A DNA stretch of 57,419 nt, the filler included, from Thelocarpon superellum (lineage: Eukaryota), in the NCBI GenBank assembly GCA_026025795.1. It is 2 parts of 2 records of this genome, joined end to end, with 100 filler letters (N's around TTAATTAATTAA, not from the genome) between each part and the next. Parts side by side here need not be neighbours in the genome. Positions count along the whole stretch, not along the records: positions 28,829 to 57,419 come from JAPEUG010000234.1; 1 more part is not named here. One strand, written 5' to 3'. Numbering within the stretch: position 1 is the stretch's first letter; every line of letters begins with the position of its first letter. Shown here one piece after another: positions 28,729-56,376 of the stretch. A program made the position numbers and the translations under genes. The notes under the pieces are model-generated. The model saw nothing but the letters and a program-made list of their open reading frames with translations, searched no databases and was not told where the DNA came from.

Positions 28729-28828
28729 NNNNNNNNNNNNNNNNNNNNNNNNNNNNNNNNNNNNNNNNNNNNTTAATTAATTAANNNNNNNNNNNNNNNN
28801 NNNNNNNNNNNNNNNNNNNNNNNNNNNN
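28729..28828. other. Artificial assembly spacer: N44-TTAATTAATTAA-N44
   Basis: Exactly 100 nt, symmetric, with a six-frame stop linker at 28773-28784. Confidence 0.97.
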
Positions 28829-29673
28829 TGCCATGGATTGAATCAGGTTGGATCCGCAAAGCGTACAGCACGGCACGGCACGGAACCTCCCTCATCGCCA
28901 TCCAGATAACGCCGCTCCCAAAGCCATCGTGGATGGGGGATGCTCACCCGCATATTGACGCAGATGCCCTGGCCCAGGCCCAGGCCCTGGCCCACTACAT
29001 CATGCGAGCCGCGCATCTTCTCTTCTTTCGGGCGGGAAGAAAGGAGGGAGGGAGGAATGAAGGAAGGAGGAGTGTGGGGGGGAGGGGGGAAAGGCAGGAA
29101 GGGGTTTGATCGCCGCGGGGTTGAGTTTGGGGTCGATCTGCATGCGGTCGTTCGTTACGGTCGTCATCGTCCCTTGATTTGGTATCTCATTGCTCATTGC
29201 TCATTTCTTTCTTTCCAGTCGCTGCTGCATCCATCTGCCGGGGCCGGGGGCCGCCGGGGGGACCGCCGCAGGGATCGCGGACGGACGCTATGGGATGGTG
29301 GGTAGCGTGGCAGACGTCTGACACGTGTACATCCGCGTCTCTTATCGAACTACGGCTACGTTGGGCTTTTGCGCCATCTCGTTACTCGAGAGTCTGCATG
29401 GTGCAGGCTTGCGCCGATCGCTGGCTGTTAGGTGTTGGGAAATGGATGGTGGAGTGAGGGCCGGGGATGGCAAAGAAAGGGGTGCTGGGGGGCCAGGATG
29501 CGGGAGGAGCGACAGCGATCGCATACCAACTCCCGGCGGGCTAGTCACATTAGTGGAGGCGGACGACAACGTGGGTGGGGTGTCGTTAGTCACGGTCGTC
29601 GGCGATTCTATCTTGGAGGCAGAAATCCTACGGGCCGCACAGGGTGGGCCGGCAACGTCATGGCTTCATTGAC

Positions 29674-32700: not shown

Positions 32701-35161
32701 TGACCTTTCCTGCTGCTACCCTCCTCGTACAAGTACACGTTCGGCGGCCAGAACGACGACCCGCTACTCCTTCCCACTACTTCCGCTACTACAACTTGCC
32801 GCCGCCAGCGTCGCTTGCCCCCGTCGCCGGGTCGCTCGTTCGCCTGTCTCTGGGCCGGCCGATCGACCTACCAACCGAAGCGGTCGTGTCTACTTGAACC
32901 ATAGGAGCGGCGGTGCAAGCGTCAGGACCAGGACCATTTCCAGTACGAGTACGTCGTACCTGGACCGGTGCGCTCCTTTCCCACTCCCATCACGACGGAT
33001 TTAGAAGAACGCGTTGTGTGTAACGCCCTCCACGGGGCACCCTCGGTTTAGCCTCAGCCGCTCCGTCCCCCCCCCAAACGAGCGGAGGCTCTCACGCATC
33101 CGGACAGTGGTGAAGCCTTAGTTCGTCCCGGCAGCGCACCCTCCCCAGTGACCAAAGCCCTGCAAGCAGCACGGTCGAGCGGCCATCGTCATTTCACCCC
33201 CCTTCGCTCCAGCACAGTCGACGCGCTAGACGTTTCAAACGTCTTGGGCTCGCCTGTCGTGTCGTCACTCCGCCTCCGCGCACACGTGAGGATCCGCAGT
33301 GAAGGCGCGGCCGCAGGATCGTCATCCCATCTTCCCACGCCTCCGCCTTTTCCTCCCAACCCACCGTCCCGTGGCATCCGTGCACGCGATCGCCACCACG
33401 TCGACGGGCACTAAGGGCATCGACCTGCTCGGCCCTGCACGAGAGCGAACGAACGCCCTTAGCCTCGCCAATACTGCGACTGCCCTTCTCAGGCTCGCTG
33501 TCCCCCAGGTTGATGACTTGCTCGCCGCTGCTTTGGGCATAGAGCACAAGTAGATTGTGCGCAATTTAGCCTACGCCAGAAGCAGTAGGACACGCCCTGC
33601 CGCCACCTTCCCCAAAACATCCACCCCACCGCCCCCATTGCGATTGTCGTTTGGGGCTCGTCGTTGCGGCTGCGCGGGTCTGGACGTCGCTGCGCTCGGG
33701 CGGCATCGTGCTCACGCCCCGGCGATCTGCCAGGACTCGTGTGCGCGTTCGGCTCCTTTTCGGGAGGAAGGCTGGAGGAGGCCGATCAGCACGACGAACA
33801 CGAACACGAGCCCGAGCACCAGCACGGACGAGTGCGATCTCGACGGCGACCGCGACACAATAACGTCGGCCTAACGATTCTTCCTGACGCAAGCATCGAG
33901 ACCCAGCAACCGGAGGCGGCCCCCCAGTCCGTCGTCGCTGTGGGGCACTTCGACCCTTTCCCGGACCGGACTGGCCTGGGTTGGACTGGATCGGCCCAAA
34001 TACGACGAGTACGGGATTCGCTGCTGGAGCTGGACGGCCCTAGGAGACCTTACGCCGACGGCACACCCACGCGTTTTCAGCGGGTGCCGAAGACAGGCGC
34101 AGCAACACCACCGCCCAGAACCAGCGCGCAGTCTCCAGAGCGAACTCGGCCCCAACGAACCGCGGCCGACCTTTTTCCTCCCTCTCGCTGCCAAATCGCC
34201 GCCGCCCACGACGGATTTTAGGTTTGCGACAGCAAATCATCTTGCCCAACGAGCGAGCGCATCCGCTCAGCTCGACGCAGGCTCGCCCGGGCGCCCCAGC
34301 CTGCTCGTGGACCTCCGGCCGCCTTACGAGAGACTACTTTACTCATCCGGGCGCCCTTAAACCAACTTAACCCACCCCCCCTGCTCCTCGACTATCTCTC
34401 TTCTCTCTAACCACCCACCACACCAACCTCTCCGCTCTCCGCTAGCGGTCTTGCTGTCGCCCGCTTCGTAGGCAAGAGAAGGGGACGAGCGCGTGCACCA
34501 AGGCTCTAGATCGCCTCCCCCGCCACCCACCATCGTACCGCGACCGTGGGACCTGCGTGGCCTGGTTTCGGCCGGCGTCGACTTTCTCCAACCCACTACG
34601 GAGCTCATTTCTCCGCTCTCGCCGCCACGAACAGCTCTTGGGCTAGCAGCACCTGGCCCCGACCTCGCGCATTCGACTTGTCGGCTTTCGCATTCGCGCC
34701 TGGGGAACCTGGTGCTGGACGATCGCATCGCACCTGCATCACCCGCCGCCGCCGCATCGCCCTAAAGTAGTCCGGTCCGCCGCTGGAGCAGCGCGCAGCA
34801 GCATCGTCGTCGCCGTCGTGCAACCTACCTGTGGCCCTGGAGCACCAGCACGTCGACCGCCTCGTCGCCGTGTTGTTCTAGCATCCCTCTCGTCGAACGC
34901 TTCGTGCCTCTTGCTCTGTCGCGTGTTGAGCCCGGAGGAAGCGTGTGCGCCGACCCGAGCGCCAACGTTCGTCCACTCACCGGGACCCGAGTCCGCCGCC
35001 AGGCCCGTCACGTTGTGGGGATTGTCCATCGCCCGTCGTTCGTCGTCCGTTGTCCGTCGTCCGTTACCGCCCATCTGTGACCCGAGCGTGCGCTGTCGAC
35101 CGACGACACCACCTTCTCGCCCGCCTCCCCGTCACTCCTCGACGAGCGCGCCCGCTGGCCT

Positions 35162-36701
35162 ATGGACAGAGGTGCTGCCGAATACTCGCAGTCAGGTTTG
35201 CCGGCGCCATACCCTGCCTACACCGATCCTCCGTCTGAGGCGCCTTCTGCAGATCCCGCATCTGCTGCGCAGTACACTCCCGCGCAAGAGGTTCGCGGCG
35301 CCGCCACCTTCTCGGCTTCAGGTACGCCCACGTCGGAGTACGGGCTGCCTCCCTCGTCAGCGCGGTCGGGCAACTTTCCGGAATACCTGAGTCGTCCGCC
35401 GTACCAGGACACGCCCTCGCGCTACCAACCGTCGAGCAACAACAGCGGCAGCAGCGGAGGTATGGCTCAAGCGTCAAGTCCGTCCTTGCCCTTGACAGAT
35501 GGGCATCCAAATAGCCATCCCAGCGCGCACCACATCAAGTCTGACCCGGAGGTTCCTCTAGATCCCTCGATCGCGGCCTCCAGCCCCACCTATCCACCGC
35601 CGGGCCAGTACTCGCCCTATCCGCCGCAGCACGACATGGCCCAGGCCTATCCAGGACACGCCGGGGCCGGGAACATGTACGGGCGACCGGAGTGGGGCCA
35701 GTACGGCCAGCCTCACCCGCACGGCGTCCCGCCCTACGGCACGCACTCGCCCTCGACCACCGTCTCGTCGGCCTCGTCGGCGGCGACGGCGGGCGCGCGA
35801 CCCGGACAGGTTGGTTTCCACGACGTGACGCCTCAGCGATATTCTCACATGCAGCAGCAGTCGCATCCGCTCTCGCAAGTCTACTCCTTCGTCCCCATCC
35901 CCGGCGCGCAGCAGCATAAGCGACCGCGCCGTCGGTACGAGGAGATTGAGCGCATGTACAAATGCGGCTGGAATGGGTGTGAGAAGGCGTATGGCACGCT
36001 GAACCACCTCAACGCGCACGTCACGATGCAATCGCACGGGCAGAAACGCACCCCGGAAGGTACGCATGCTTCCTTTTTTTCCCTCGTCGTCTCTCCCAGG
36101 TCCGTGGTCGCGGCGCGGCGCGGCGCGTGGCCCCACGCTAGCGCACGTGCGCCCGGGCCCGAACCCCCGGGCTAGCGCGTCCACGGCGCGCGAGCTCTCC
36201 CTCTTGACGACGATGCTCCGACCAGCCGCGCGGATGATGAAGGATGCGCTGACGCATGAGGGGGACGCACAGAATTCAAGGAGATCCGCAAGGAGTGGAA
36301 AGCGCGAAAGAAAGAGGAGGATAACCAGCGCAAGGCCGATGAGGAACGGCAACGGGTGGCGTCGCAGGCCAGCGCCGTGGAGCCGCCGATCCCGGCGGAC
36401 CCATCGCAGGCGTCGTCGGCCGCCGCCTACCCGCCCGGGGTACGTCCTCAACTTCCGCCGATCGCGTACACGCCCGGGCAGCCGGGTCCGGTGCCCGGGC
36501 ATTATCCGGCGCAAGCCAACGGCATTGAGCAGATGCAGCAGTACGGGAGCAACCCGTTGTACTCCAACTACCCGCAATCACCATATGGGCAGGGCAATCA
36601 GATGTACCAACAACGTCAAGCACCCCTACTCCCGCCGGGGAAGGACCGAGACTGATGCTAAAGCAGATCCTGATGTGCCCCCTGGCAACTACCAACAGTA
36701 G
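35162..36701 (+). CDS. CON7: Con7-type C2H2 zinc-finger transcription factor; introns ~35810-35860, 36060-36272, 36615-36665
   Basis: MDRGAAEYSQSG start and the highly conserved VYSFVPIPGAQQHKRPRRRYEEIERMYKCGWNGCEKAYGTLNHLNAHVTMQSHGQKRTPE/EFKEIRKEWKARKKEE. Confidence 0.92.
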
Positions 36702-38766
36702 GCCACCCGCCCGTCCGTCGCTCGTCGACATGGCCTCGCCGCAAGGGCCCCGCCCGCCGCCCACCGTCACCCCTCGTCTTCATCGGCCACTCCTCTTCTC
36801 CCTCCCTCCCTCGCCTCGTTCTATCTCGCGCCAACTAGTACCGTCCGTCCGTGCGTCCGTGGTATGCCGGTAGTGTGGGAGGGTGTGATCTGATCATGTC
36901 CGTTTGATACATTTGCATGCGTCTGATTGCTCTGGTTTGGGGTGGTCTTCTGAGTTGATCCCGTTCATGGGCGGAAAGCGATTGCGGCACGACTCTCTTA
37001 CCCGACCACGCAGGGCTTCACCACGCGACGCTGACGACTTAATCTCGGTCTCACGGACGTAGACGACTCGTACACGGGCTCGCTTTGGTGGCCTGTGTGG
37101 CTGGGTTGGGGGTTGGCCGTGCAGCGTGTACGTCTGCATCTGCGTCTGCGTCTGCCCTTCGTCCTGTGTTCACCCATTCACGTTGCATTCGGTCTCAGGC
37201 ACTGCGCACACTCTCACATACTCTCATGCTCACGCATACACATGGGGTCTACTTCTCTTGAGTGGTTGATGTTGAACTTTGATCTCGCGCTCGCGCACCC
37301 AAACCCTCTCCCCCGCCCCTGTTTCTGCCCGTCGGCATTCCTCCCTTGATCTGTGGTCGAGCGATCGATTCTCACTCCAAAAGCCCTGCTGTACCACCAC
37401 CACCACCCAAACTCCATTCGCTTTTTGTTCTTCGTGGGAGGGGGCGCTTCAGCAATAAGATTGACGTGGCGATAATATCCATTTGATTGGAAAGCCCGTG
37501 ATAAAGTCGTATGAGTATGAGTCATTGTGTGTGAGACCCGGCATGGGGTAGATGGTCCGCTACTGGCAGTAACACCACAATGGTGGGGTCACGGGTGGCG
37601 TCGGAAATCCAGCCCCTGTCTTGTCGGGGAAGGTGGGGCACTCACAGTTAGCTTCCTCCTGGTCTGGTGGTTACATGCGTTTCGGCAGGGTGCAGTAGTA
37701 CCACCATCCTGCGTGACGGGTGAAACATGAAAGATGCATGTCAAGCGGGAACACCGAGGACCCCTGCTGCCGATCATGTAGCCAGCGGAGGCAAGAGCGG
37801 GTGAACCAGCTATTATAGGGATGCGATGGAGCAACCTAGGTGGCCGAGGGAGATACTGATCCCGATGGTGGGGTGTGGGACGGAGTAGCGTCCTGCTGTC
37901 ATCCTCCATCCGTGTACGGTGGTGCTTCTTCAGGCGCCTTGCTGTCCAAGCACGAGGAGTCCTCCACTCCATCCCTTGACGATGGACGAAGGGCTTATGC
38001 GTGGGTCTCCCTACTTCACGAGGGTAGCAGGGTACGACGAAGGATGGATGGATGGATGCAGCTGATGTCGTAGCGTGCACAGGGCACACGGCACACGGTA
38101 CAGCAGAGCAGCAGGGAACACACTTACTCCTGTATCGCACAGGGAATTTGCTGGACTTTTCCCGCAGTACCGTCTCACGACTGTCAGACGGCGCGTAGTT
38201 GCGGTCGTTTAGAAAGCTCGCAGGACGTGTGTACGGGAAGCATGGGGTTCAAATGCGAGTACTGGAATGATATACATGCTGTCTGCTGCATACTGCCTGT
38301 CCTGTATCTTTCACCGGCTAAATTCGAGTGAATCCTTCGATTCTCCTGTCCCGGTCTCCCTCTCTCTCACCACAGGAGATCGGATTGAACACGGCGGGAG
38401 CAGGAGAGGCAGGTCTACCATCTATCATGCCTACCGTGGACCTCACTTGGCCGGACCATGGATCATCACGGTCTTCTCCACTGTGTACCGTCCTGTACTG
38501 TATGACTCAAGTAGCACCGCCTCCTGCACGTAGTTGCCGAAGTAGAAGCATGGACGCGAACGAACCAAGCCATGGTGAGGGGTTGTACGACCCACTAGTC
38601 ACGGTAGTTGGCAGTAGTGGGACCCACGAACCACTCCGCTGGGAGCTTGATGGGAGGAAGGGATGGACGGATGGCTGGCATGGGCTATCGGGCAATGGGA
38701 TAGTACGAGCAGTTAGGCTAGGCCGACGTGGCTTTGGCAATGGCCTGTGGCGTGGGCCGTTGGCGT

Positions 38767-43198: not shown

Positions 43199-44012
43199 TC
43201 AAGCCTTGATATCAAAGCTCGTGCCACAGCCACAGCTACTAGTCGCCAGGGGGTTATCAACAATCTTAAACTGACTGCCGATAAGCTCCATGGTATAGTC
43301 GATCTTGCTCCCCTGTAGCAGCTCCAGGCTCGGCTCGTCCATGACGACCTTGGCGCCCGAGCCGTCGCCCGCTTCGAAGACGGTATCGTCCGTGGCTGAG
43401 ACGGCGTCGGTATTGGTCAGAGACATCAGGTATTGGAATCCATGGCATCCGCCGGATTCCACGGTCACGCGTAATGCGAGGGAGGGGTTGTCGTCTGTTG
43501 ACATGATTTCTTTCAGGCGCTAGGTAACGTTAGCGGTGATCTGCATCGAGGGGGTTCTCGAGGAGGATTGGAGGTATGCCATCACGTACATTTGCAGCTC
43601 GAGGCGTGATGTCTATGCTCATGGCATTGCCATCTTCGTCGTTTCGTGGATTACTCAGGACAACGGCACTTGATGGCGCCGGGGTGGGAGAGGTGGCTGT
43701 CGCGGTGGCGGCGGTGGCGAGGAAGTTCCTGTTGGTCGTCGGGAGGAAGGCATGTCGAGTTGCACGGACGACAGGTCTCTGCGTCGGGAGTTTCCTCCGT
43801 CCAAGACGTGACCTTATGCTCTGCCAAGGTAGGAGAAAGTCAGGGATGCTTTCGATCGAGACTTGGGTCGTGGCGGTTCGAAAGGTGTGACTATGAGGTG
43901 AATGTGGAGATGCGCTTGACATGAAACTACAGCCGTGTATCGGGACACTGCCTGCGCACCCTCCGGCGCGCTTTGCACGTATCAGACGTGATGCAACTCT
44001 CCACTCCGACAT
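43199..44012 (-). CDS. ISA2: A-type Fe-S cluster assembly protein Isa2; intron 43589-43520
   Basis: ITPRAAN/RLKEIM...LRVTVESGGCHGFQY...SSCGCGTSFD; N-terminal mitochondrial presequence-like region. Confidence 0.95.
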
Positions 44013-44244
44013 CGTGGTGATTGTGGCGACCGGGTTGGCTTGGTATGGAGCTATGTGACGATGGACAGTCGAAAGAAAAAGTAGCCTGCAATGTGACTAG
44101 TAGTCACTTCGTCCCACTGAAGCCGAGGAATTATTAGAAATCCAGACGACGTCGTTAAACATCCCGTCACGAGTCACAAGTCACGAATGACATGGACGAC
44201 TCCATTTTCTTCGATGATACCCCACTTCATGACCTACTCGAGAA

Positions 44245-45720
44245 TACAGTCACATAGGAACCCAATGCTCCGCCGAGCAAAAATGTGGCTATTGTGCAGG
44301 CCGCCACACGACCAAAGACTGCAGCAATAGGGAGGCGTCATCCTCCAACAAGTGCGTCGTCTGTGACGGGAGCCACACGGCCTGGAGCCCTTCATGCCCG
44401 GCACAGAATAAAGAGCAAATCCAGGTCAACCAGGCAAAACAGGAGCGAATGCCTTTCCACACGCTCAGGTGTCAGACGATACTGTCAACACCCTCAACCA
44501 GGCCTTCCATTCCATCTCTGGCAGCCACGGTCCCTGGACCTCCCACGGGAGACAGGCAGTCAAGGTCCAGCTCACCGACTAAAAGACCATACACGAAACG
44601 CCCAAGGACAGCATCCACGGAGAAAGCGACAAGCCAAAGTGGGAGCACGATAACAGACCTCCACCCGTCTAGCCAACAGTCGATCAACTCTATGATCGAG
44701 GCGTGTCGAGGGGCTATTGCGGGCCGCCCTACCGTCCTCCTCGGAGACGGAGACGCCAATTCCAGGCTGAGATGGAATGAGCCGGGCACAACTCAGAAAC
44801 GAAGCCAACCAAAACCGAACAAGGCTCGCAGTATACAGGCCAGCCGGATGGATGAGTCGTAAGACCTCCTTCACAATCTTGCAGTACAACGTCATGAAGT
44901 CAAGAGATATAGTCATGGCCCCGCTCTTCCGAGATCAGCAGATCACCGACTTCGACATCGTGGCGCTTCAAGGACCCTGGAGGAATCCTTTTATCGACAC
45001 TACCTTCCATCCCCTGAAGGACCGCTTTCACCTCGCCTACTCCCCGGAGGCGACCACGCGAGTGTGCTTCTTCATCAGTAAGAGCATCCCGACGACGGAC
45101 TGGTCGATCGTACACCACTCGTCAGACCTCTGCACCCTAAGGATGGCCTGCCAAATGGACGAACAAACGACACAACGTGTCTATATCCACAACGTCTAAA
45201 ACCCGCAGCCAACAACTGCCAGTCCGAATGGCACACTGCCTCTTCTACACACAGCCCTCGACGCAGGAAGGGGCCAGGAGCATGCGGTACTAGGGGACAT
45301 CAACCTTCACCACCCGCTCTGGTCAGGGTCGACCCATCTGCAAAGCCCCGATGCAGATTACCTCCTGGATAACCTGTGCGACCATCAACTTCAGTTTTTA
45401 AACGCCGGAAGGCGCCACGACATTCATAGGGAAAGGAGCAGACAACACTTTCGACCTCAACTTTGCAACGCCCTCTGTCGCGGACAGGATGAGGTCTTGC
45501 AAAGCGACAGACTCTATGCACCACGACTCCAACCATCTACCGATCGCCACAACCCTCGATCTCTGGACAGCACCCACCTTACAGCAAGCCCGGCCTCAGT
45601 GGAAACGTACGGATTCTAAGGTGCTGCTGGATACCCTGAAGACACCTCCTCACCGTCGAGTCAATCACGACGGCTCGAGAACTCAACGATATGGTTGAAC
45701 AAATGGTGCGAGCCCTGGCC
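44245..45720 (+). mobile_element. Non-LTR retrotransposon (LINE, Tad1-like) relic: ORF1 zinc knuckles + disrupted ORF2 APE endonuclease; no RT
   Basis: ORF1 end reads HIGTQC..KCGYCAGRHTTKDC...KCVVCDGSHTAWSPSC. ORF1 stop (44862) overlaps the ORF2 ATG (44852): ILQYNV...DIVALQGPW...IHNV*NP...VLGD.N.HHPLW...SNHLPI, with a stop and frameshifts. Confidence 0.9.
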
Positions 45721-46374: not shown

Positions 46375-46649
46375 GGTTATGAGCCCGGTTGAGCTGGTGG
46401 TAGCAGTCCACTTGAGCGCCTGAGTCCGTCAGCTGCCTGTTACTGGGATGTCGTCGTCGTCGTCGTCTTAGTCGTCAGTCGTTGTCAACCGTCGTCGTTG
46501 AAGTCGCCAGCCGTCGGCCGTCATCGTTGAAATCGAACCATCAGTTGTTAGTTGAGGGTGTAGGAATCAGAGCTGAGTTGCTAATCTACGCGTAGTCTGG
46601 GATAGTAATAGGAGTGGGCACGTGACCAGATCACGTGCGTGCTCCTACA
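46375..46649 (+). mobile_element. Copia-type non-autonomous remnant: PBS-like GGTTATGAGCCC, short internal part, purine tract, 91-bp LTR-like unit (46559-46649)
   Basis: ...TACA|GGTTATGAGCCC at 46371-46386; TTGAGGG|TGTAGGA junction; the unit has TGTAGGA...TCCTACA termini. Confidence 0.6.
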
Positions 46650-46848
46650 CCAGCTAAGTTACCTCAAACGCTAGTCATCCACATCACATATATATGCTCG
46701 TGCAGTCCTCATACGCAGAGGGCCGGCCGGTTAGGGTGTACTCATATTTACCATTGGTAGGGTTCATACGTCCTGTCACAGAGCCGGTTCATTTCACGAG
46801 AGCAATCTGACGGACTCCAGCTACTTCTACGCCAGAAGTTATTGACCA

Positions 46849-49161
46849 TCATGTGGGCTTGACACGGATCCCCAGCCCGTCTGCCTCTAGCGGCTCTCGT
46901 CTTCTCTTGTTTCCAGAAGATGGCGACAGGAGCAAGGGTGGCGACTCCCGGACGATACCTGCCCTTTCAAAGTCGATCACCATGATTCGACGCACCCGAT
47001 CATCCCACAAGATATTTCGCGACGACTCGTCGTTGTGCTGGATTCCTGCGTCCCGGAGGCCTTTGAAAGCTTGAGCGATCTTGCTCTTCATGCGAGGGTT
47101 GTCCATGATACTGACAGGGTCGTCGATGCGTCGGCCAGCCCATGAGAGGAGCAATATGTGCATGATTCGGACCCCCTTGTCGTAGTAGTAGGGGTGGGAG
47201 AAGTCGATGCTTCCCAAGCAGACGGGCAGAGAGACTCCCTGGAGTGCCCGGAGATGATCGTAGACCACTGCTTCGTGTCGGATGTCATCGACGAAAGCCT
47301 CGACGGTACCTTTGGCAACAAGTGTGTACCCGTATGAAGCCAATGTTACCCTGAAAAGGACGCCGCGTGCACCCTCCATGCCCATCGGCTCGAAGTGATT
47401 GTCCAGCGTGCGCTTGAGCTGTCGGTGGAGAAGCCTGAGAAAGGATGTTCGATCGATTCGGTGACGACCGTCATGGCCTCGATGTGCAGGCACGTTGGGG
47501 CACTTAGGATCGAGAAAGTCTGCCCGCGTGAGGCCCCGCAGACAATCGTGCGTACAGAACTCCCGGCGTCTGTGTTGACGCCTGGAATCGGAAGCGGTTG
47601 AGTTGGCACCCGTAGAACTGGTTGGCTGTGGGGCCCGACGGGTGCGATCGGCACCAGGGTCGCGGGTTGGAGTATCGGGATCGTTGAAGTCCGAGTCTGA
47701 TCCTGGGCTTTCGGCGTCGTCGTGGATCGAAGCCTCTGGTGAACGACAACCGGCTCCGTTCATCGATCGAAGCTTGATGGGAGATCTGTCCTCGAGACGG
47801 TAGGTACTTGGGCGGTAGGAGCTTGTCGAGGCGGCCTTTCTGGTGCTTGGTGGGATCTCCCGCAGGATCGCGTCGTAATCCACCTCCCACGGCGAAAGTT
47901 GAGCGATGAGGCTCTCCCGCCACCTGTTCGTCTCTGACTTGGATTCGAGCGCGAGCAGACTGAAGGCCAGGATCTGAGCTAGAGCAGTGCGGTGCGACCA
48001 ATCCTCCTGTGGAAACTGGTCTCTCTGTGACGCCACATCGGCACTGGGGTCGACGAGATGGTATAAGATGGTGGCCGGGTCGTCTAACGGGACATGGAGG
48101 AAGACGAAGGCCTGGCCGGTCGTGATGTATCCGTACTGAACGCCACACTCGATCATATAGGAGTAAATCTGAGTGACGGCAGCAGCAACCAGTCGATCGG
48201 AGTGGTATCTGAGGTGGGCGTCTTCATCCTCAGGAGATGGTATTGTCGGTCGATCGATGACGTCCGGGCGTAACTCCATCTGACGAAGCCCCGCCTGCAG
48301 CAAGGCGAGCGGCATCTTGTGTGGCGGTTTGCGCTCGATGAGGAAAGCGAGACGGCGGCTCCTGTTCTTGCCCTGGCCTTCGACGTAGACACAGACCTGA
48401 TCTGTTGCGGGAAACTTCGAGCCGCGAATTCGAGCGGCCGGAGTCGACGGCCCGGAAGTTCTCTGGCCAGATCGCCGGACAACTTCTTCGCTCTCATCAC
48501 TCAGGGCGTGCGGTTGGTGTTCGAAGGTCACATGTCCGCCGAGCTTGAACTGTGCAATGACTGGATCGACGGCGCAAAGGTGGTTGAGAATGAAGCTGGC
48601 AGGTATCTCCACCGCTTGGCGTTGAACATCGTGAAGGTCCGCTTCATAGCCCAAAGGCTGCGTCTTGATCCTCTTGCCCTGGCTTTCGACCGAATGCTCG
48701 CTCTCGAAAACTCGTTGACCGTGCTCCGGGGGATATGCCGAATAAAGCCGCGTAAGCACGTTTTTTTGTTGCGGGAGGAATTTATCCCACGGCGCCAGAT
48801 GCCTAGGATGTGTTTTCCCGTCCGGCTTGGTGATTCCGCCCGTCGACGTGAGCGACTTGTCCGCCTGGATAGTGATGTTAAGGAAGAGATGCTGGTGGCA
48901 AAGCCGGAGATATTCGACGAGCGTGGTGTTGTTCAGCCGTCGTTCGGCCTCCTCCCGAGATGCCCGTTCGTCCTGGACGCGTCGCTCGGCCGCCACTCGA
49001 GCCGCGTCTGCCTCCTCCCGCGATGCCCGTTCGTCCTGGACGCGTCGCTCGGCCACCACTCGAGCCGCATCTGCCTCCTCCCGCGATGCCCGTTCGTCCT
49101 GGACGCGTCGTTCTGCCTCTCGCAGAAGTTTCTGGAGTGCCTCGATATTCGGTCGAGACAT
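46849..49161 (-). CDS. Spok-family (spore killer) protein: coiled-coil repeats, PD-(D/E)xK-like nuclease, Cys cluster, kinase; intronless, ~770 aa
   Basis: TTLVEYLRLCHQHL...TSTGGITKPDGKTHPRHLAPW; DQVCVY...FLIERKPPHK...QIYSYMIECGVQYGYITTGQAFVFL; FCTHDCLRGL...LDPKCPNVPAH; GARGVLFRVTL..YGYTLVAKGT...HNDESSRNILWD...IDFERA. Architecture matches Podospora SPOKs as recalled. Confidence 0.85.
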   Translation of the reverse strand: MSRPNIEALQKLLREAERRVQDERASREEADAARVVAERRVQDERASREEADAARVAAERRVQDERASREEAERRLNNTTLVEYLRLCHQHLFLNITIQADKSLTSTGGITKPDGKTHPRHLAPWDKFLPQQKNVLTRLYSAYPPEHGQRVFESEHSVESQGKRIKTQPLGYEADLHDVQRQAVEIPASFILNHLCAVDPVIAQFKLGGHVTFEHQPHALSDESEEVVRRSGQRTSGPSTPAARIRGSKFPATDQVCVYVEGQGKNRSRRLAFLIERKPPHKMPLALLQAGLRQMELRPDVIDRPTIPSPEDEDAHLRYHSDRLVAAAVTQIYSYMIECGVQYGYITTGQAFVFLHVPLDDPATILYHLVDPSADVASQRDQFPQEDWSHRTALAQILAFSLLALESKSETNRWRESLIAQLSPWEVDYDAILREIPPSTRKAASTSSYRPSTYRLEDRSPIKLRSMNGAGCRSPEASIHDDAESPGSDSDFNDPDTPTRDPGADRTRRAPQPTSSTGANSTASDSRRQHRRREFCTHDCLRGLTRADFLDPKCPNVPAHRGHDGRHRIDRTSFLRLLHRQLKRTLDNHFEPMGMEGARGVLFRVTLASYGYTLVAKGTVEAFVDDIRHEAVVYDHLRALQGVSLPVCLGSIDFSHPYYYDKGVRIMHILLLSWAGRRIDDPVSIMDNPRMKSKIAQAFKGLRDAGIQHNDESSRNILWDDRVRRIMVIDFERAGIVRESPPLLLSPSSGNKRRREPLEADGLGIRVKPT
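48938..49118 (-). repeat. 63-bp coding tandem repeat (ERRVQDERASREEADAARV[V/A]A) x~2.8
   Basis: Near-perfect nucleotide repeats in the Spok N-terminal coiled coil. Confidence 0.93.
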
Positions 49162-51087
49162 AGCGTCGCGAGAGTGTTCGACGAGCGTGGTGGACGATAG
49201 TGCGACTGGTATGATCACACTCTTTCAGGTGGCGCAAAGTCAATCCATTGAGGGACGGAGGCGCGTAGGCGCGTAGGCGGGTAAACCGGGAGGGCGACAC
49301 GTCTGTAATCACGTGATTGGTGTTTGGCAACGGACACGGCCGTCAATTGTCAACCCAACCGAATCACTCTTCTCCACACTACGTGACTGCAAAGAGACTT
49401 ACCGTCGAGGGGTACACTTGATCATTCCCTCGAAATCCATCTCTACCGCACATCATGTACCTGCTACACCGGAAGCTTCTTGTGCCAGACATCCCTTACA
49501 GATGGCCGATGAAACGCCCAGGCCAGCCCTTCATCCTCGCTCACTTCGACCCCCTGCCCAAAGACCGCGCGTAGTTGCCCTTGACCATCGCCTCAACGAT
49601 CACCCCAGGTGGCGCGATCAAGAAGTTGTACATTACATGCCGTCCGACGGGAAAGAAAGAGCAACGACGAGAAGCTGCAAAGTGAGTGAGACGTACTATG
49701 ATCCAGCAACGACTGACCTACAGTGGCCAAGTGCATTAAGGGATACTTCAACGGAGGCCTCCCGCGAGCACCTCCCGCTCCTGCCGGCGCGCTTGGCCGA
49801 GATGGGCGGCGTGACGCCAGCGCAGGCCATCGCCGATGCCTACTACGTCGTCGCGGGCATCGCGCTTGTCGTCTCGACGTGCTGCCCCTTAGGCTTGCGC
49901 GGGCTCGACGGCGAGAAGGGCAGGGGCTGAAGGCGCTTGTCGAGCAGGGGCCTCAGAGTGAGGGCACGAAGAGGCCGCCTTACTTGCGCTTCCTGCGAGA
50001 CGACGTCATTCTCGGCGTGACCGACGCAGATATAGGCCTGAGCTATCTCGGCGTGGCGGGGTAAGGTTCTCTCGCGGACAGGTCGACCGTCGTGACCTCG
50101 CAGGGCCTCTTCGGTCGGCATCTCCCTGTGCATCTCGCTGTTTGCGCACGCCCACTTCATCCGCTCGGCCCTATGTGCGGGCGACGCGACGGGGCATTCG
50201 GACAAGATGAAGGCCGAGTGCAAGCGGGCGTATGTGCTGGCGGCCGGTGCATCAGCTCCGCCTCCTGCTGTCCCCGCTGACCAATTGTCAGAGCTCGGTG
50301 GGACGACGCAGCTGACGGCCTTGCACTTCGCGCCAGTTGTCGGCCAATGATGAGGGATCATGTGCCCGGTTGATCGTTGAGCATGGAAAGTGTACGTCTT
50401 CTTGGTGTCTTTGGTCTGTGTCCGGCGTGTGATCATTTGTTCGGGTACATCCAACCGCTTATATCTTAAGGCCTGAGGGAAGGCGTACCACGAGCCATCG
50501 GCGCACTGCCGGGCGAGGTAGATGCCCCGAAGGCAGTGCGTGGATGATTTCTGTCGTGGTGGAGATGTTCCGGCATCCGAAGCACGGGACTTTCGGCCCT
50601 TGTGGCAGAGGCAGACGGGTTGCATCAAAATCGGACCTACCGAAGCGTTGTGGGATGTGGACCGGACGGGTAGTCGGGCCTTGTGGCAGAACAGAGGCGC
50701 ACGCAAGACATGGAGGGACACGGAAATGTTGTGGCGTGTCGAGCGGGCGGAACGGACGGAAGCTCGGAGCCTTGTGGCCGATTGAGCGTACAGCCGATTG
50801 CGCGTCGTCATCAACCCGATATGGCGCCGCGGCTGAAGACAGAATTGGCCTAACACGATGTCAGGTGGGTGGCATAGCCGCTGCACCCCACGGCAGCCCC
50901 CCACTCGACGCAGCCCGTGACTCCCGAGTGGAGACGGGCCCTGCTCGTCTATATAAACCTGTTGTCCCACTTCCTTACGCCCTCTCTCGCACCCTCCTTC
51001 ACACTGCCTCACTACGTCTCTCTCAGCGCATTATTCCATCATCCATCTCCCGCGATCTGTCATATCTTCGCACAGCACTTCTGCGGC

Positions 51088-52376
51088 ATGTCTCCCTCCG
51101 GCGACCTCCCGGAGATGTCGGTACCGCAGCGAAAATTGGAGGAAGTGCCCCTTTTCGCTCCACAGCGCAAAGCTCTACGTGGCCGCGATCGCTACAGGGA
51201 ATCACGGTGCCTCCCGTCGTCTGATCCTTTTTCATCCGCCTCGGGCACAACCCTCGACGAGCGGTCGCTCATCGCGAACGAGACCGATGTCTTTCCACTA
51301 TGCGACTCGGCATCGCTCACCATTGACCAGTGGCCCGAGTCCGCTCTCGAGGAGGTCATCGTGTACCAGGGCTGCCCGTCGTCCTTGGTCAGCCTGCTGG
51401 ACGCCGACACACGCAGCAGCGTTGTCGTGTGCGGTCGAGTTCGGGAGGTTCCTAGAGGCCAGCAGCTTCTCGGTATTTGTGCCCCTGGCTACTCGCCTGG
51501 AATCCACGCTGACCGCAACAGTACCAGACCTCGGTGTTGACCAAATGCATGTCGTCCTCGAAGACGTGCGCCAATTCTCCCATTGCACCTACGACGATGG
51601 CTCCTTCGTTATCTGGGCCGCGGGCCGGGCTGGCTGGTTCAAGATCCGGCCCGCAGACGAGTACCGCGATATCTACGCCGGCATGGACGTTGCAGTACGA
51701 CTGTTGCATTTCCTCGAGAGCCATTACTCGGCGCACCAGCACAATGGGAGGTAAGGCAGCGTCGATGAGGTGTGGGAGACGTATACAGTCAGCCACGACG
51801 ACTGCGCGGACGAGACCGGAGCCGCCGAGCTCTTCTACCGCTACCGCGACTTCCTCATTGCCGCTATGCTCGAGGAGGACCCACGCCTGGTTTGGAGCGG
51901 CACGCCATTCTTTCGGCACATGCGGACGCGCTACCCCGACAGCTTCTGGCGCATCCAGTCGCGTCACGCGCCGATGATCGAAGGCAGAGATTTGGGTGGG
52001 GACCCGCAGCTCCATAATGGGCGTAATAGTACGGTATTCGTGCCGAGGAAGCACAGCAGCTGACTGTGTCCAGTGCAGGGGGGGGGATTGGCCGATTAAG
52101 GCCATCCTCGACATCAAGGAGCCCTCAGCCGGAAACGTCATGGCTCGTGTTCGGTGGGAGCCCACTGCAACACGTATCGAGGACGTGCCACGGCTGCAGC
52201 GAGAGGGTCAGGTAACAAAGATCGTCCTGTGTGACAGCGGCAGAGCCGTGGTCCACTGGAAGCCCACATGGGAGTCAATGTCGGCGTTATCAAACACTGA
52301 GGCGGCGATGAAGGAGGTGATATCTCGACACTCGCGCCGAGGTCGGCGTTGCTTGGAGATTCGGCGGCGCAGGTAG
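51088..52376 (+). pseudogene. RFTS (DNMT1-RFD-like) domain + C-terminal chromo-like segment; in-frame TAA at 51752-51754
   Basis: DQWPESALEEVIVY...VSLLDA....VVVCGRV/..VVLEDVRQFS...DDGSFVIWAAGRAGWFKIRPA..YRDIY..M..AVRLLHFL...AELFYRYRDFLI..M...W..TPFF.HM resembles fungal DNMT1-RFD proteins, followed by WPIKAILD...ARVRWEPT and VVHWKPTWE. Introns at 51473-51521 and probably 52034-52073. Confidence 0.75.
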
Positions 52377-53888: not shown

Positions 53889-54470
53889 CGTGCGCGCCCG
53901 AGCGGCGGGAAGCAAGGAGGAGATGTCCGCCTAGCGGACAAGAGGATGGGAGAGCGGTCGTCGGGGACGGTCTCGGAGCAATATTGACCGGTCGCGAGCG
54001 AGGATGAGGATGGAGCCGACAGGACGGAGGATCAGAATGGCCGAGTGAAGTGGAGGAAGTCGGAGAGCAGGGCGACGTTCGGAGTGCGGATGGCCCTGAC
54101 CCTGTAGAGGGCCAGCGGCGGGCCCGCGGCCGGGAAACGGGGGGGTGGGCCCCATGCCGGTGGTGGAGAGCCCGAAATGGAGCCTCGAGGGACAATCGGC
54201 AAGAGTTGACGAGGTCTGCGGCAGGAAGATGAGGCTACGAGAGCATGGGGCGACGGAGGTGAGCGGCGGGTGAGGCCGGGGTGAGCGGCGGGTGAGGCGA
54301 GGTGAGCAAAGCGGCGAGAGGGTGAGGCCCGATGCAGAACGGGAGGTGTGGTTATTCGGGCGTGAATACAAAGAAATACGGAATCATACTATGACTCCGT
54401 GTTAAGCTTGATTGTAGAAGTCTGCCAAATGAGACAATAAGCATTTCTCGCGACGTAAAATATAACGTTG

Positions 54471-54560
54471 TGTAGGAATCAAAGCTGAATTGCTGATCTA
54501 CGCGTAGTCGGGATAGTGATAGGAGTTGGCACGTGACCAGATCACCTGCGCGCTCCTACG
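54471..54560 (+). repeat. Second copy of the ~90-bp LTR-like unit (probable solo LTR)
   Basis: About 9 differences from 46559-46649 by hand alignment; flanks CGTTG / (A)CGTCA resemble a decayed 5-bp TSD. Confidence 0.85.
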
Positions 54561-54666
54561 ACGTCATTTACTAACCGATGGGCCCGCTACCTCAAGCACC
54601 GGGAACTCCGAGTCAAGCCGAGTCTAAGCCGGGCAAGCCGAGCATTCTGTTCCGGACAAATCAACC

Positions 54667-56376
54667 ATGGCGGAAGCAGATCAAGAAAGTAGTCGTGCAG
54701 GACACGAATCAAACATGTTTGCAGACTCAGAATCCCTGACGAAAGAGTATGCTCAATGGCTAGACGAGGCAGACCCGCTCGTGCATTTCCGGGAGGAGTT
54801 TATCTTTCCCACCAAGATTTCATTGAAGAGCAAGAGCCTGGGTAAAGCAAGTCCTGATGCGAGACTTACGTCCATTTAAAACATCACGGCTAAGGCAGAT
54901 AGGCTCAATCCAGGAGAAGGACGATTCCGAACCATGCATCTACCTCTGCGGCAACTCCCTGGGCCTGCAACCACGGCGAACGAAGGACCGAATCCAGGCA
55001 TACCTAAGCCTATGGGCAGAAAAGGCCGTGCTCGGCCACTTTGCCGAGTTGGAAGAGTCCCCTATCCCGCCTTTTGTGCACCTGGACGAGATTGCGGCGC
55101 AGAAGATGAGTCGTGTGGTGGGAGCTCGTCCGGACGAAGTGGCCGTCATGGAGACGCTGTCGGCAAATCTTCATCTGTTGATGTCGAGTTTCTACCGACC
55201 TGATGCAGAGAGATACAAGATCATCATCGAGGGCAAGGCCTTTCCCAGCGACCATGTAGGCTTCGTGTGAACCCGATGGGAGAAGAGCCGCTGAGAGATC
55301 TCTTAGTATGCTGTGGAGTCGCAGATCCGCAATCATGGGCTCAACTCCGCCGATGCGTTGATACTGATCGAGCCGACGACGGCGTCAGATCCCACGCTCA
55401 CGACGGCGCAGATCGTGTCGGTCATCGACGAGCACGCTTCCAGCACCGCCCTGCTCCTCCTCTCGGGGATCCAGTACTACACGGGCCAATACTTTGACAT
55501 ACCCACCATCACGGCACACGCTCAGGCAAAGGGAATAGTAGTAGGGTGGGACCTGGCGCACGCCGCAGGAAACGTGGAGCTACACCTGCACGAGTGGAAC
55601 GTGGACTTTGCCGCGTGGTGCAACTACAAGTATCTGAATTCGGGAGCGGGATCTATCGCGGGTCTATTCGTGCACGAGAAACACGGCAAGGTGGACGATG
55701 AGAAGCTAGCATGCGGCGAATATGGCTATCGTCCGCGCCTGGCGGGATGGTGGGGCGGCAATAAGAACCGGCGCTTCATCATGGGAAACAGTGCGTTTCC
55801 ACCCACTCCACTTGACCCCCTCGCACTCATGGCAGGGTGGTGCAGGGAGTAAGGAAGTGGAACAAGCTAAACCGGAGGACAGAGTTCCACCCGATCCCAG
55901 GGGCAGCCGGATTTCAAGTCGGCAACCCGTCCGCACTAGACACGACGGCCGTCCTGGCCTCTCTCGAGATCTTCAGCTCCACGACTATGGCCGCGTTACG
56001 GGGGAAGAGTATAAAACTAACGGGCTACTTAGAGCATCTTTTACTCCATTCTCATTCTTCCTTCCGCAGCTCCTCCGACCCTGCAGGAGCAGGAGCAGGA
56101 GCAGCAGTAAGAAGAGGGGAAGGAGGGGCAGAGAAGCACTACAGCATCATCACGCCCTCGTCACCGAAGAGCAGAGGCGCACAGCTCTCCATCCGCCTGT
56201 CGCCTGGCCTGTTGGACGGGGTAATGGCGGGCCTCGAAGAATCCGGCGTCGTGGTCGACGAGCGCAAGCCCGACGTCATCCGCGTCGCGCCCGCGCCGCT
56301 CTATAACTCTTTCGTCGACGTGTGGCGCTTCGTGCAGATTTTCAGGGACGTGCTTGAGCGTCTTCTTGACCGGTGA
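54667..56376 (+). CDS. BNA5: Kynureninase (PLP-dependent); introns 54842-54902, 55256-55307, 55791-55882
   Basis: [99 protein letters not shown]. Confidence 0.96.

Follow-up and report, generated by a model that had tools for sequence, protein, structure and literature searches.

The window analysed here is a 57,419-nucleotide stretch of DNA from Thelocarpon superellum (assembly GCA_026025795.1), made of two joined parts, of which the second (positions 28,829 to 57,419) comes from record JAPEUG010000234.1. Its minus strand carries, at 46849-49161, an open reading frame (ORF) of the SPOK family, the family of the Podospora spore killers, which was delimited by its open frame and by full-length homology to relatives. 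The frame runs from ATG to stop without interruption (770 codons plus the stop codon), and its product is designated P0001. The stop-free stretch around it, 791 codons at 46852-49224, is second in the window to a JmjC gene of 1285 codons. The original prediction for this locus, made from the sequence alone, had proposed a single unbroken ORF of about 770 amino acids encoding a Spok-like protein with the SPOK order of domains. The frame and its length of 770 amino acids are confirmed, the strand, left unstated at that time, is minus, and the likeness to Spok genes is borne out by the family annotation PF27653, by full-length relatives and by colinear motifs.

Family membership and domain layout of P0001

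P0001 is almost certainly a full-length member of the SPOK family, as judged from its homology. Membership is defined by end-to-end homology or by the family hidden Markov model (HMM), and P0001 belongs to the family on that basis. Pfam PF27653 (PF27653.1), named SPOK2_N, "Spore killer 2 N-terminal domain", in the Atlas, was annotated in advance on P0001 itself and on all of the relatives in the homolog searches; the assignment is thus a precomputed annotation. The homolog searches returned at least 16, at least 17 and 11 proteins; homology was full-length for the 16, and the best of these other than P0001 itself was P0002 (E 1.8e-276), an ENA protein that shows 59-61% identity to P0001 end to end, is the closest among the matches listed and aligns up to the extreme C-terminus. 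After P0002, identity among the matches listed is at most 45% over the full length and 53% over the region of domain 2 (the putative nuclease domain), and the named relatives come from Botryotinia and Monilinia (43%), Caeruleum heppii (39%), Trichoglossum (36% and 32%) and Aspergillus rambellii (31%). A family profile built from 14 members and run against 1.84 billion representatives matched 4813 of them at E ≤ 1e-3, 2938 at E ≤ 1e-10 and 1498 at E ≤ 1e-30, mostly end to end and with full-length homology in the best 150 representatives. Given these thousands of relatives, P0001 therefore adds one more gene to a known family.

An alignment of 138 full-length family members, P0001 included, served for the conservation counts. 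At each of the functional positions described below, P0001 shows the residue that prevails in the family. P0001 holds the consensus in all 54 of the columns that are at least 90% conserved among the 137 relatives; the relatives themselves keep a median of 52 of these columns (range 43-54), and 28 of them also score 54. In a FastTree phylogeny of the same 138 rows, P0001 is sister to P0002 (support 100) and then to a protein of Sarcosagium campestre (support 96), within a 21-row clade (support 94) that also holds homologs from Sclerotiniaceae, Geoglossum and Usnea (Usnea florida), and its end branch is 0.42 compared with a median of 0.68. All of these nearest relatives are uncharacterised hypothetical proteins.

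The alignment shows P0001 to bear constraint, with its predicted parts arranged in the order of a charged N-terminal repeat, domain 1, a domain with D/ExK and QxxxY motifs, a Cys/His cluster and a Kdo/Bud32-like kinase. The charged repeat covers residues 16-72 (about 48947-49117, minus strand) and is made of a 63-nt unit present in 2.7 copies with 95% matches by Tandem Repeats Finder (TRF), corresponding to about three units of 21 residues; the repeat search of the window recovered it as repeat family D1, whose copies match the reference at 94% and 75%. The number of units varies between homologs in the alignment. D, E, K and R make up 51% of residues 1-76; in the best heptad register, 26% of the a/d positions are strongly hydrophobic, a figure that rises to 58% if Ala is counted. 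The segment could equally be a charged single helix rather than a coiled coil; of the charged coiled-coil repeat proposed originally, the charged tandem repeat stands, and the coiled coil is one possible form of it, heptad hydrophobicity being weak. Domain 1, to which no function has been assigned, comprises residues 77-185 (48607-48933, minus strand), was delimited by family alignments and carries a TTLxEYLxxCH motif. T80 is invariant and C88/H89 are nearly invariant in alignment A1, and H89, P119, W125 and F128 are each at least 90% conserved in alignment A2. The motif TTLVEYLRLCHQHL, quoted by the original prediction, lies at residues 79-92 of P0001.

The putative PD-(D/E)XK nuclease ("killing") domain spans residues 245-425 (47887-48429, minus strand) and was delimited by homology across 49 domain sequences (alignment A3). 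Within it, the D...ExK motif that had been pointed out before (DQVCVY...IERKPPHK) is found as D254...E276-x-K278 (48328-48402, minus strand) in strongly conserved columns, D254 being kept in 129, E276 in 131 and K278 in 134 of the 138 rows. A Q331-x3-Y335 motif (48157-48171, minus strand) was likewise assigned by column conservation, with Q331 in 136 and Y335 in 123 rows. Downstream lies the Cys/His cluster C536-x3-C540-x13-C554-x5-H560-x6-H567 (C554-PN-x3-H560; 47461-47556, minus strand), also assigned by column conservation; each of the three Cys residues and H560 is kept in 137 rows and H567 in 123, and the CxxxC...CPN..H cluster read earlier is upheld by these columns.

The predicted kinase ("resistance") domain occupies residues about 575-745 (46927-47439, minus strand), as delimited by Pfam Kdo, PDB kinases and column conservation. 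Its kinase residues are K617 and E630 (each in all 138 rows), H709-N-D711-x4-N716 (D711 in 134 and N716 in 135 rows) and D730-F-E732 (D730 in 134 rows), which agrees with the HxD(x4)N and DFE motifs first described. The assignment of a kinase is independently supported by Pfam Kdo on P0001 (E 1.1e-4, 22.1 bits versus a cutoff of 21.3), by weak NCBIfam matches to Kdo kinase, Bud32 and APH, and by a PDB search with the 138-row profile, in which the kinase catalytic-loop/DFG region was matched, with Cdc7 as the best (E 1.3e-7); the best 60 of 1484 matches were all kinases. The catalytic-loop Arg is at D+4 in P0001, a position shared by 41 of the 138 rows, and at D+2 in 82 rows; Arg at D+4 is therefore a common variant and no defect. 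Chance does not account for the quoted motifs: the columns in which they fall are conserved in 116-138 of the 138 members. All the key motifs announced for this gene are present, including the equivalents of the SPOK3 residues tied to killing (K278 here) and to resistance (D711 here). PADLOC gave no match, and the Rfam and tRNA searches likewise returned nothing.

Copy number and genomic surroundings

In a source-like sequencing run, which contains 97% of the sampled words and may be the sample from which the window itself came, contigs over the Spok gene and its flanks have an even depth of about 150-190. This is consistent with one Spok copy and with the absence of a paralog at 88% nucleotide identity or more; no second Spok copy was found in the window by tblastn, and the gene appears to be present once per genome. 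The same organism was detected in two low-depth moss-metagenome runs of one study, with flank pieces mostly 97-100% identical. The Spok gene is indicated in both, because depth over the ORF bins is non-zero, and no contig in the moss runs joins across it. A soil-metagenome run (X6) gave near-identical pieces within the ORF only (47103-47480 and 48109-48298), the flanks being uncovered; it provides no evidence of a different context, because its depth is low and it was chosen by the Spok gene itself. Among the four variant sites listed for a near-identical metagenome copy, three are synonymous and one is L317F. No joint or empty-site contig was recovered in four runs, a result of little weight given that the same organism occurs only in the two low-depth runs.

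Codon usage of the Spok gene resembles that of the host. Its relative synonymous codon usage (RSCU) correlates with that of the pooled housekeeping genes at r 0.82, compared with 0.52-0.90 for housekeeping genes in a leave-one-out comparison and 0.33-0.51 for pieces of a long interspersed nuclear element (LINE), and its third-position GC content (GC3) is 0.65, housekeeping genes ranging from 0.61 to 0.78. A recent horizontal arrival was considered on composition and rejected on these values. With host-like codon usage and single-copy-like depth, nothing therefore suggests recent arrival.

A Pfam scan of the window covered 225 ORF pieces (42, 85 and 98) over 57 kb and located genes for NFACT (1.5-4.8 kb), STIMATE (7.2-7.9 kb), a JmjC/PHD protein (12.1-16.0 kb), NAD-glutamate dehydrogenase (19.1-22.3 kb), ADE2 (25.8-27.8 kb), an ankyrin protein (40.3-40.9 kb), a PPR protein (41.0-43.0 kb), an IscA-type Fe-S protein (43202-43519) and kynureninase (about 54.8-56.4 kb; first ORF piece 54827-55267, first Pfam match from 55307). 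The housekeeping genes among them have full-length domain matches, and the closest to the Spok ORF are the IscA-type gene within 3.4 kb and kynureninase within 5.7 kb on the other side. A decayed LINE-type endonuclease fragment lies in three frames at 44233-45695 on the plus strand, with Exo_endo_phos_2 matches in two different frames (E 4.4e-7 and 2.1e-3); no reverse-transcriptase part and no other transposon-type domain were found in the 225 ORF pieces. Nor did these pieces contain a Starship captain (DUF3435), a recombinase, a transposase or a reverse transcriptase, and residence of the Spok gene as Starship cargo was rejected on the lack of a captain in the window and the housekeeping genes close by on both sides. 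No signature of repeat-induced point mutation (RIP) was detected in the Spok gene, the LINE fragment or the spacers. The Spok gene appears to sit in a gene-dense core region of a Pezizomycotina (ascomycete) chromosome, off any Starship. The decayed neighbours and pseudogenes described at first are mostly intact core genes, the frameshifted LINE fragment being the sole transposon-type remnant, and the argument that intactness amid pseudogenes points to selection or recent arrival is not sustained by the core neighbours, the host codon usage, the missing RIP signature and the flat depth.

A 7.9-kb segment with the Spok gene in it is enclosed by two copies of a repeat of about 92 nt. Copy 1 (46558-46650, plus strand) lies 199 nt past the Spok stop codon and was delimited by depth, loose ends and inverted repeats; copy 2 (54470-54561, plus strand) is in direct orientation to it and was found by repeat searches and depth. 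The element has terminal inverted repeats of 8 nt, contains a CACGTG...CACGTG palindrome in its interior and has a DNA fold z-score of -2.9, and the copies are 91-92% alike over aligned blocks of 43 and 50 nt. The window contains no further match, and two were reached in none of 100 shuffles. In the source-like run, depth bins reach 12,532 at copy 1 and 3,678 at copy 2, compared with about 150-190 elsewhere; the element is therefore a very abundant repeat resembling a miniature inverted-repeat transposable element (MITE). Loose contig ends occur at copy 1 (46558/46559 and 46649-46651). No target-site duplication is readable at either copy, and the repeat core is absent from 81 loci.

Between 49.3 and 54.4 kb there is no Pfam match, yet codon periodicity is present. 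Upstream of the Spok ORF, positions 50878-52060 (plus strand) probably hold a gene, with the periodicity changing frame near 51.4 kb. The protein-like ORF at 51380-52060 has an in-frame TAA at 51752-51754, within GTAAGG, which may lie in an intron with GTAAGG as the donor. The sole family trace of this probable gene is DNMT1-RFD (E 0.064), and an Atlas search with the ORF at 51455-51751 was uninformative, with a best score of 0.81. Farther away, the region 33000-37000 is the GC maximum of the window (0.64-0.66) and has long overlapping ORFs on both strands; its sole match is a weak Zap1-type zinc finger (E 4.2e-5) below the family cutoff. Two 44-N runs at 28729-28772 and 28785-28828, 12 bases apart and just downstream of ADE2, were read as masked or unassembled sequence.

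Relatives in metagenome contigs give a view of other Spok-family loci. A total of 103 relatives were confirmed and 80 kept, at most 44% identical to P0001, and a tblastn comparison of 17 flank ORFs of the window with the 80 loci revealed no shared neighbours. The flanks of the homolog loci contain 112 ORFs of at least 330 amino acids, and the 76 that were scanned encode housekeeping proteins, NACHT/WD40/TPR proteins and DDE transposases, with no DUF3435 among them; no frequencies are claimed, because many loci are the same organisms resampled. Some distant Spok homologs adjoin NACHT-WD40 genes, of the nucleotide-binding, leucine-rich repeat receptor (NLR) type, or DDE transposases (flanks of loci L021, L024 and L031; L027:2308-3846, L049:12423-13757 and L058:13673-16093). 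In locus L058, a second Kdo-kinase-bearing ORF, of 807 amino acids, lies at a distance of about 4 kb from the first and is a possible tandem paralog. Among the proteins, P0107 is a family member filed under the tree Carpinus fangiana, for which contamination of the plant assembly is the simplest account. The P0079 and P0141 clusters are two separate Spok-family groups of dermatophytes; each keeps an identity of at least 90% in Microsporum canis, M. audouinii and M. ferrugineum.

Predicted activity and rival readings

The best-supported reading of P0001 is a catalytically intact protein that acts like its characterised relatives. A single protein would then have a nuclease activity that damages DNA and requires K278, the lysine of the ExK motif, and its own kinase domain, by way of the catalytic Asp D711, would neutralise the nuclease in cis or in trans. 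Harm would come to cells or spores in which the Spok gene is lost and its protein still present, and the outcome could be visible drive at meiosis, "addiction" at mitosis or, for instance where the gene is fixed, no effect at all. The analysis gives a probability of roughly 0.5 that poison/antidote chemistry of this kind is retained by P0001. That the gene is a currently observable meiotic driver is a separate proposition and an unlikely one; an open frame with all catalytic residues is, alone, insufficient to call a driver.

Several observations weigh against retained activity or drive. The assignment of residues 245-425 as a putative nuclease rests on family homology together with published HHpred and mutagenesis results, because our own PDB, hhalign and Pfam comparisons gave no fold support. 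PDB searches gave no match with the whole of P0001 (phmmer) or with the 49-row domain-2 profile, hhalign of domain 2 to the N-terminus of HsdR from E. coli K-12 (EcoKI) gave a probability of 0.25%, and Pfam on the 49 domain-2 sequences gave noise plus HSDR_N_2 in two of them at E 0.054. HsdR is the best HHpred match of the SPOK nuclease domain according to Vogan et al. (PMC6660238), and this similarity was not reproduced with domain 2 of P0001. No Podospora or Fusarium sequence appeared among the homolog, representative or 30-protein cluster matches; 11 of the 30 relatives looked up had an organism name, all from Leotiomycetes, Lecanoromycetes, Geoglossomycetes, Eurotiomycetes or a plant record and none from Sordariomycetes. 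For Spok genes of Leotiomycetes or lichens, a literature search gave, in the paper examined, matches to the word "spoke" only. Conserved catalytic residues are no guarantee of activity, because four of six Fusarium homologs that keep them had no effect in yeast, the other two being toxic (PMC12693581), and no homolog outside Podospora has been validated as a driver according to the same report. The depth of the Spok gene is single-copy-like, its region is core, no Starship captain is present in the window and its codon usage is host-like. By depth in the source-like run and by the content of the window, the features that are typical of drivers, though not defining, are not found here: multiple or polymorphic copies, and a site rich in transposable elements (TEs), on a Starship or at an accessory location. 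Vogan et al. argue that a single orthologous copy per genome is probably not driving (PMC6660238), and the conservation of the Microsporum clusters over three species looks like ordinary vertical inheritance.

In a possible, less probable reading, P0001 is a resident, non-selfish homolog, vertically inherited as a single copy, whose nuclease and kinase activities would have a host role, for example in DNA-damage handling, non-self recognition or defence, with non-carriers unharmed. Single-copy-like depth, the core-gene neighbourhood, host-like codon usage and the lack of a captain or transposase in the window all fit it, as do the orthologous clusters kept across Microsporum species and the view of Vogan et al. 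on single orthologous copies; the short branch and the full conservation fit long-term purifying selection. The authors of the 2025 Genetics report (PMC12693581) name a native function co-opted for selfishness, but disfavour it. The literature considered gives no host function for any family member, however, and every member with demonstrated activity acts as a toxin, with or without an antidote; moreover, the relatives are patchy, the best being 59% identical and the others at most 45%, and synteny with the 80 loci is lacking, which fits gain and loss better than a stable housekeeping gene. Improbable on present evidence is a retired or inactive relic, that is, a former driver that was fixed, or one disabled outside the known catalytic residues, whose frame has stayed open through too little time. 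The Fusarium homologs that are inert in yeast despite intact catalytic residues would be precedents, and Podospora has pseudogenised and decaying Spok copies (Vogan et al., PMC6660238). Against such a relic, P0001 keeps all 54 conserved columns, its branch is below the median, its C-terminus is conserved with the 59% sister and three of the four listed variants are synonymous; a 770-codon frame is open at 59% GC, and neutral decay would be expected to have damaged some constrained features.

A further, improbable reading is a small mobile cassette, in which the 7.9-kb segment 46558-54561 between the direct copies of about 92 nt would have moved as a unit with the Spok gene. The two copies are the only ones in 57 kb and flank the gene on either side in the same orientation, the repeat is at very high copy in the source run, and mobile elements are known to carry Spok genes (PMC9156397, PMC6660238). 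The cassette is speculative, however, because no target-site duplication and no empty site were found, and several observations count against it: the copies differ by 8-9% over the aligned blocks, no joint was found in any run, the codon usage is host-like, the segment holds at least one other probable gene, and with a very abundant repeat two close copies can be coincidence. A fuller version, in which an active autonomous killer/antidote gene of a Lecanoromycete/Leotiomycete/Geoglossomycete branch was brought to the core region as a repeat-bracketed cassette of about 7.9 kb without a Starship, is highly improbable. If true, it would be the first validated Spok driver beyond Podospora, going by PMC12693581, and the cassette would be a second, small-scale route for Spok gene movement.

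Returning to retained poison/antidote chemistry, an active P0001 would extend Spok poison/antidote biology with experimental support past Podospora and Fusarium, the Sordariomycete genera tested in the literature considered, and its gene, compact, single-copy and free of introns, would allow a diverged branch of the family to be tested. It is routine for Pezizomycotina genomes to carry intact SPOK-family genes, also in ordinary core regions, and the intact gene of P0001 is one of thousands in the family, with no sign of recent arrival or active drive.

Comparison with known Spok systems

The comparison with SPOK3 was made from published motif positions and spacings; the SPOK3 coordinates K240, Q294 and D667 were sought in the 138 aligned rows without an exact match. 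SPOK3 has an N-terminal coiled coil formed from a variable repeat, followed by a domain 1 of unassigned function, a nuclease domain with a PD-(D/E)XK motif at 219-240 and QxxxY at 294-298, a C-x3-C-x13-C-x5-H-x7-H cluster and an ELK-like kinase with the catalytic D667 (PMC6660238). P0001 resembles Podospora SPOK1-4 (Grognet 2014; Vogan 2019) in the order of these parts, in PF27653 plus an ELK-like kinase, in the single uninterrupted coding sequence and in a repeat of variable number at its start. Lys and Gln are 53 residues apart in P0001 versus 54 in SPOK3, and Lys and the catalytic Asp 433 versus 427; the last spacer of the Cys/His cluster is one residue shorter (x6 versus x7), and the position of the catalytic-loop Arg, D+4 instead of D+2, is a further difference. 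K278 of P0001 corresponds to K240 of SPOK3 (killing) and D711 to D667 (resistance). In SPOK3, K240A abolishes killing, and D667A is toxic and rescued by the wild type (PMC6660238), and in E. coli and yeast the target through which SPOK1 kills is DNA (PMC9972908). Drive has been demonstrated for Podospora SPOK1-4, whereas P0001 is known from its sequence. The Podospora Spok genes are multi-copy or polymorphic and lie on the Enterprise Starship or in a TE-rich block, in contrast to the single-copy-like gene of P0001 in its core region without a captain.

Spok genes travel on mobile elements (PMC9156397, PMC6660238), and the family has an InterPro entry, IPR052396, as named in PMC12693581. A close parallel in copy number is provided by the "Clade I" homologs (Fs_82228 / NECHADRAFT_82228), which have one copy per genome and are orthologue-like, as the gene of P0001 appears to be, and which are probably not driving according to the authors. 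Fs_82228 caused empty asci in Podospora without a resistance function (PMC6660238) and had no effect in yeast (PMC12693581). The Fusarium homologs, FuSpok1/2 of F. poae and the spok gene of F. oxysporum on a Starship, share the family and the catalytic residues with P0001; they have undergone expansion, show enrichment on accessory chromosomes and in many cases lie on Starships, none of which applies to the gene of P0001. The two F. poae homologs are toxic in yeast after mutation of the kinase Asp (PMC12693581), and the F. oxysporum spok gene stabilises a dispensable chromosome by limiting its loss (bioRxiv 10.64898/2026.10.04.756499). These cases show that homologs beyond Podospora can act as poison/antidote genes in vegetative cells. 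The addiction logic is analogous to that of bacterial toxin-antitoxin modules, with the difference that in P0001 the toxin and the antidote would be one polypeptide.

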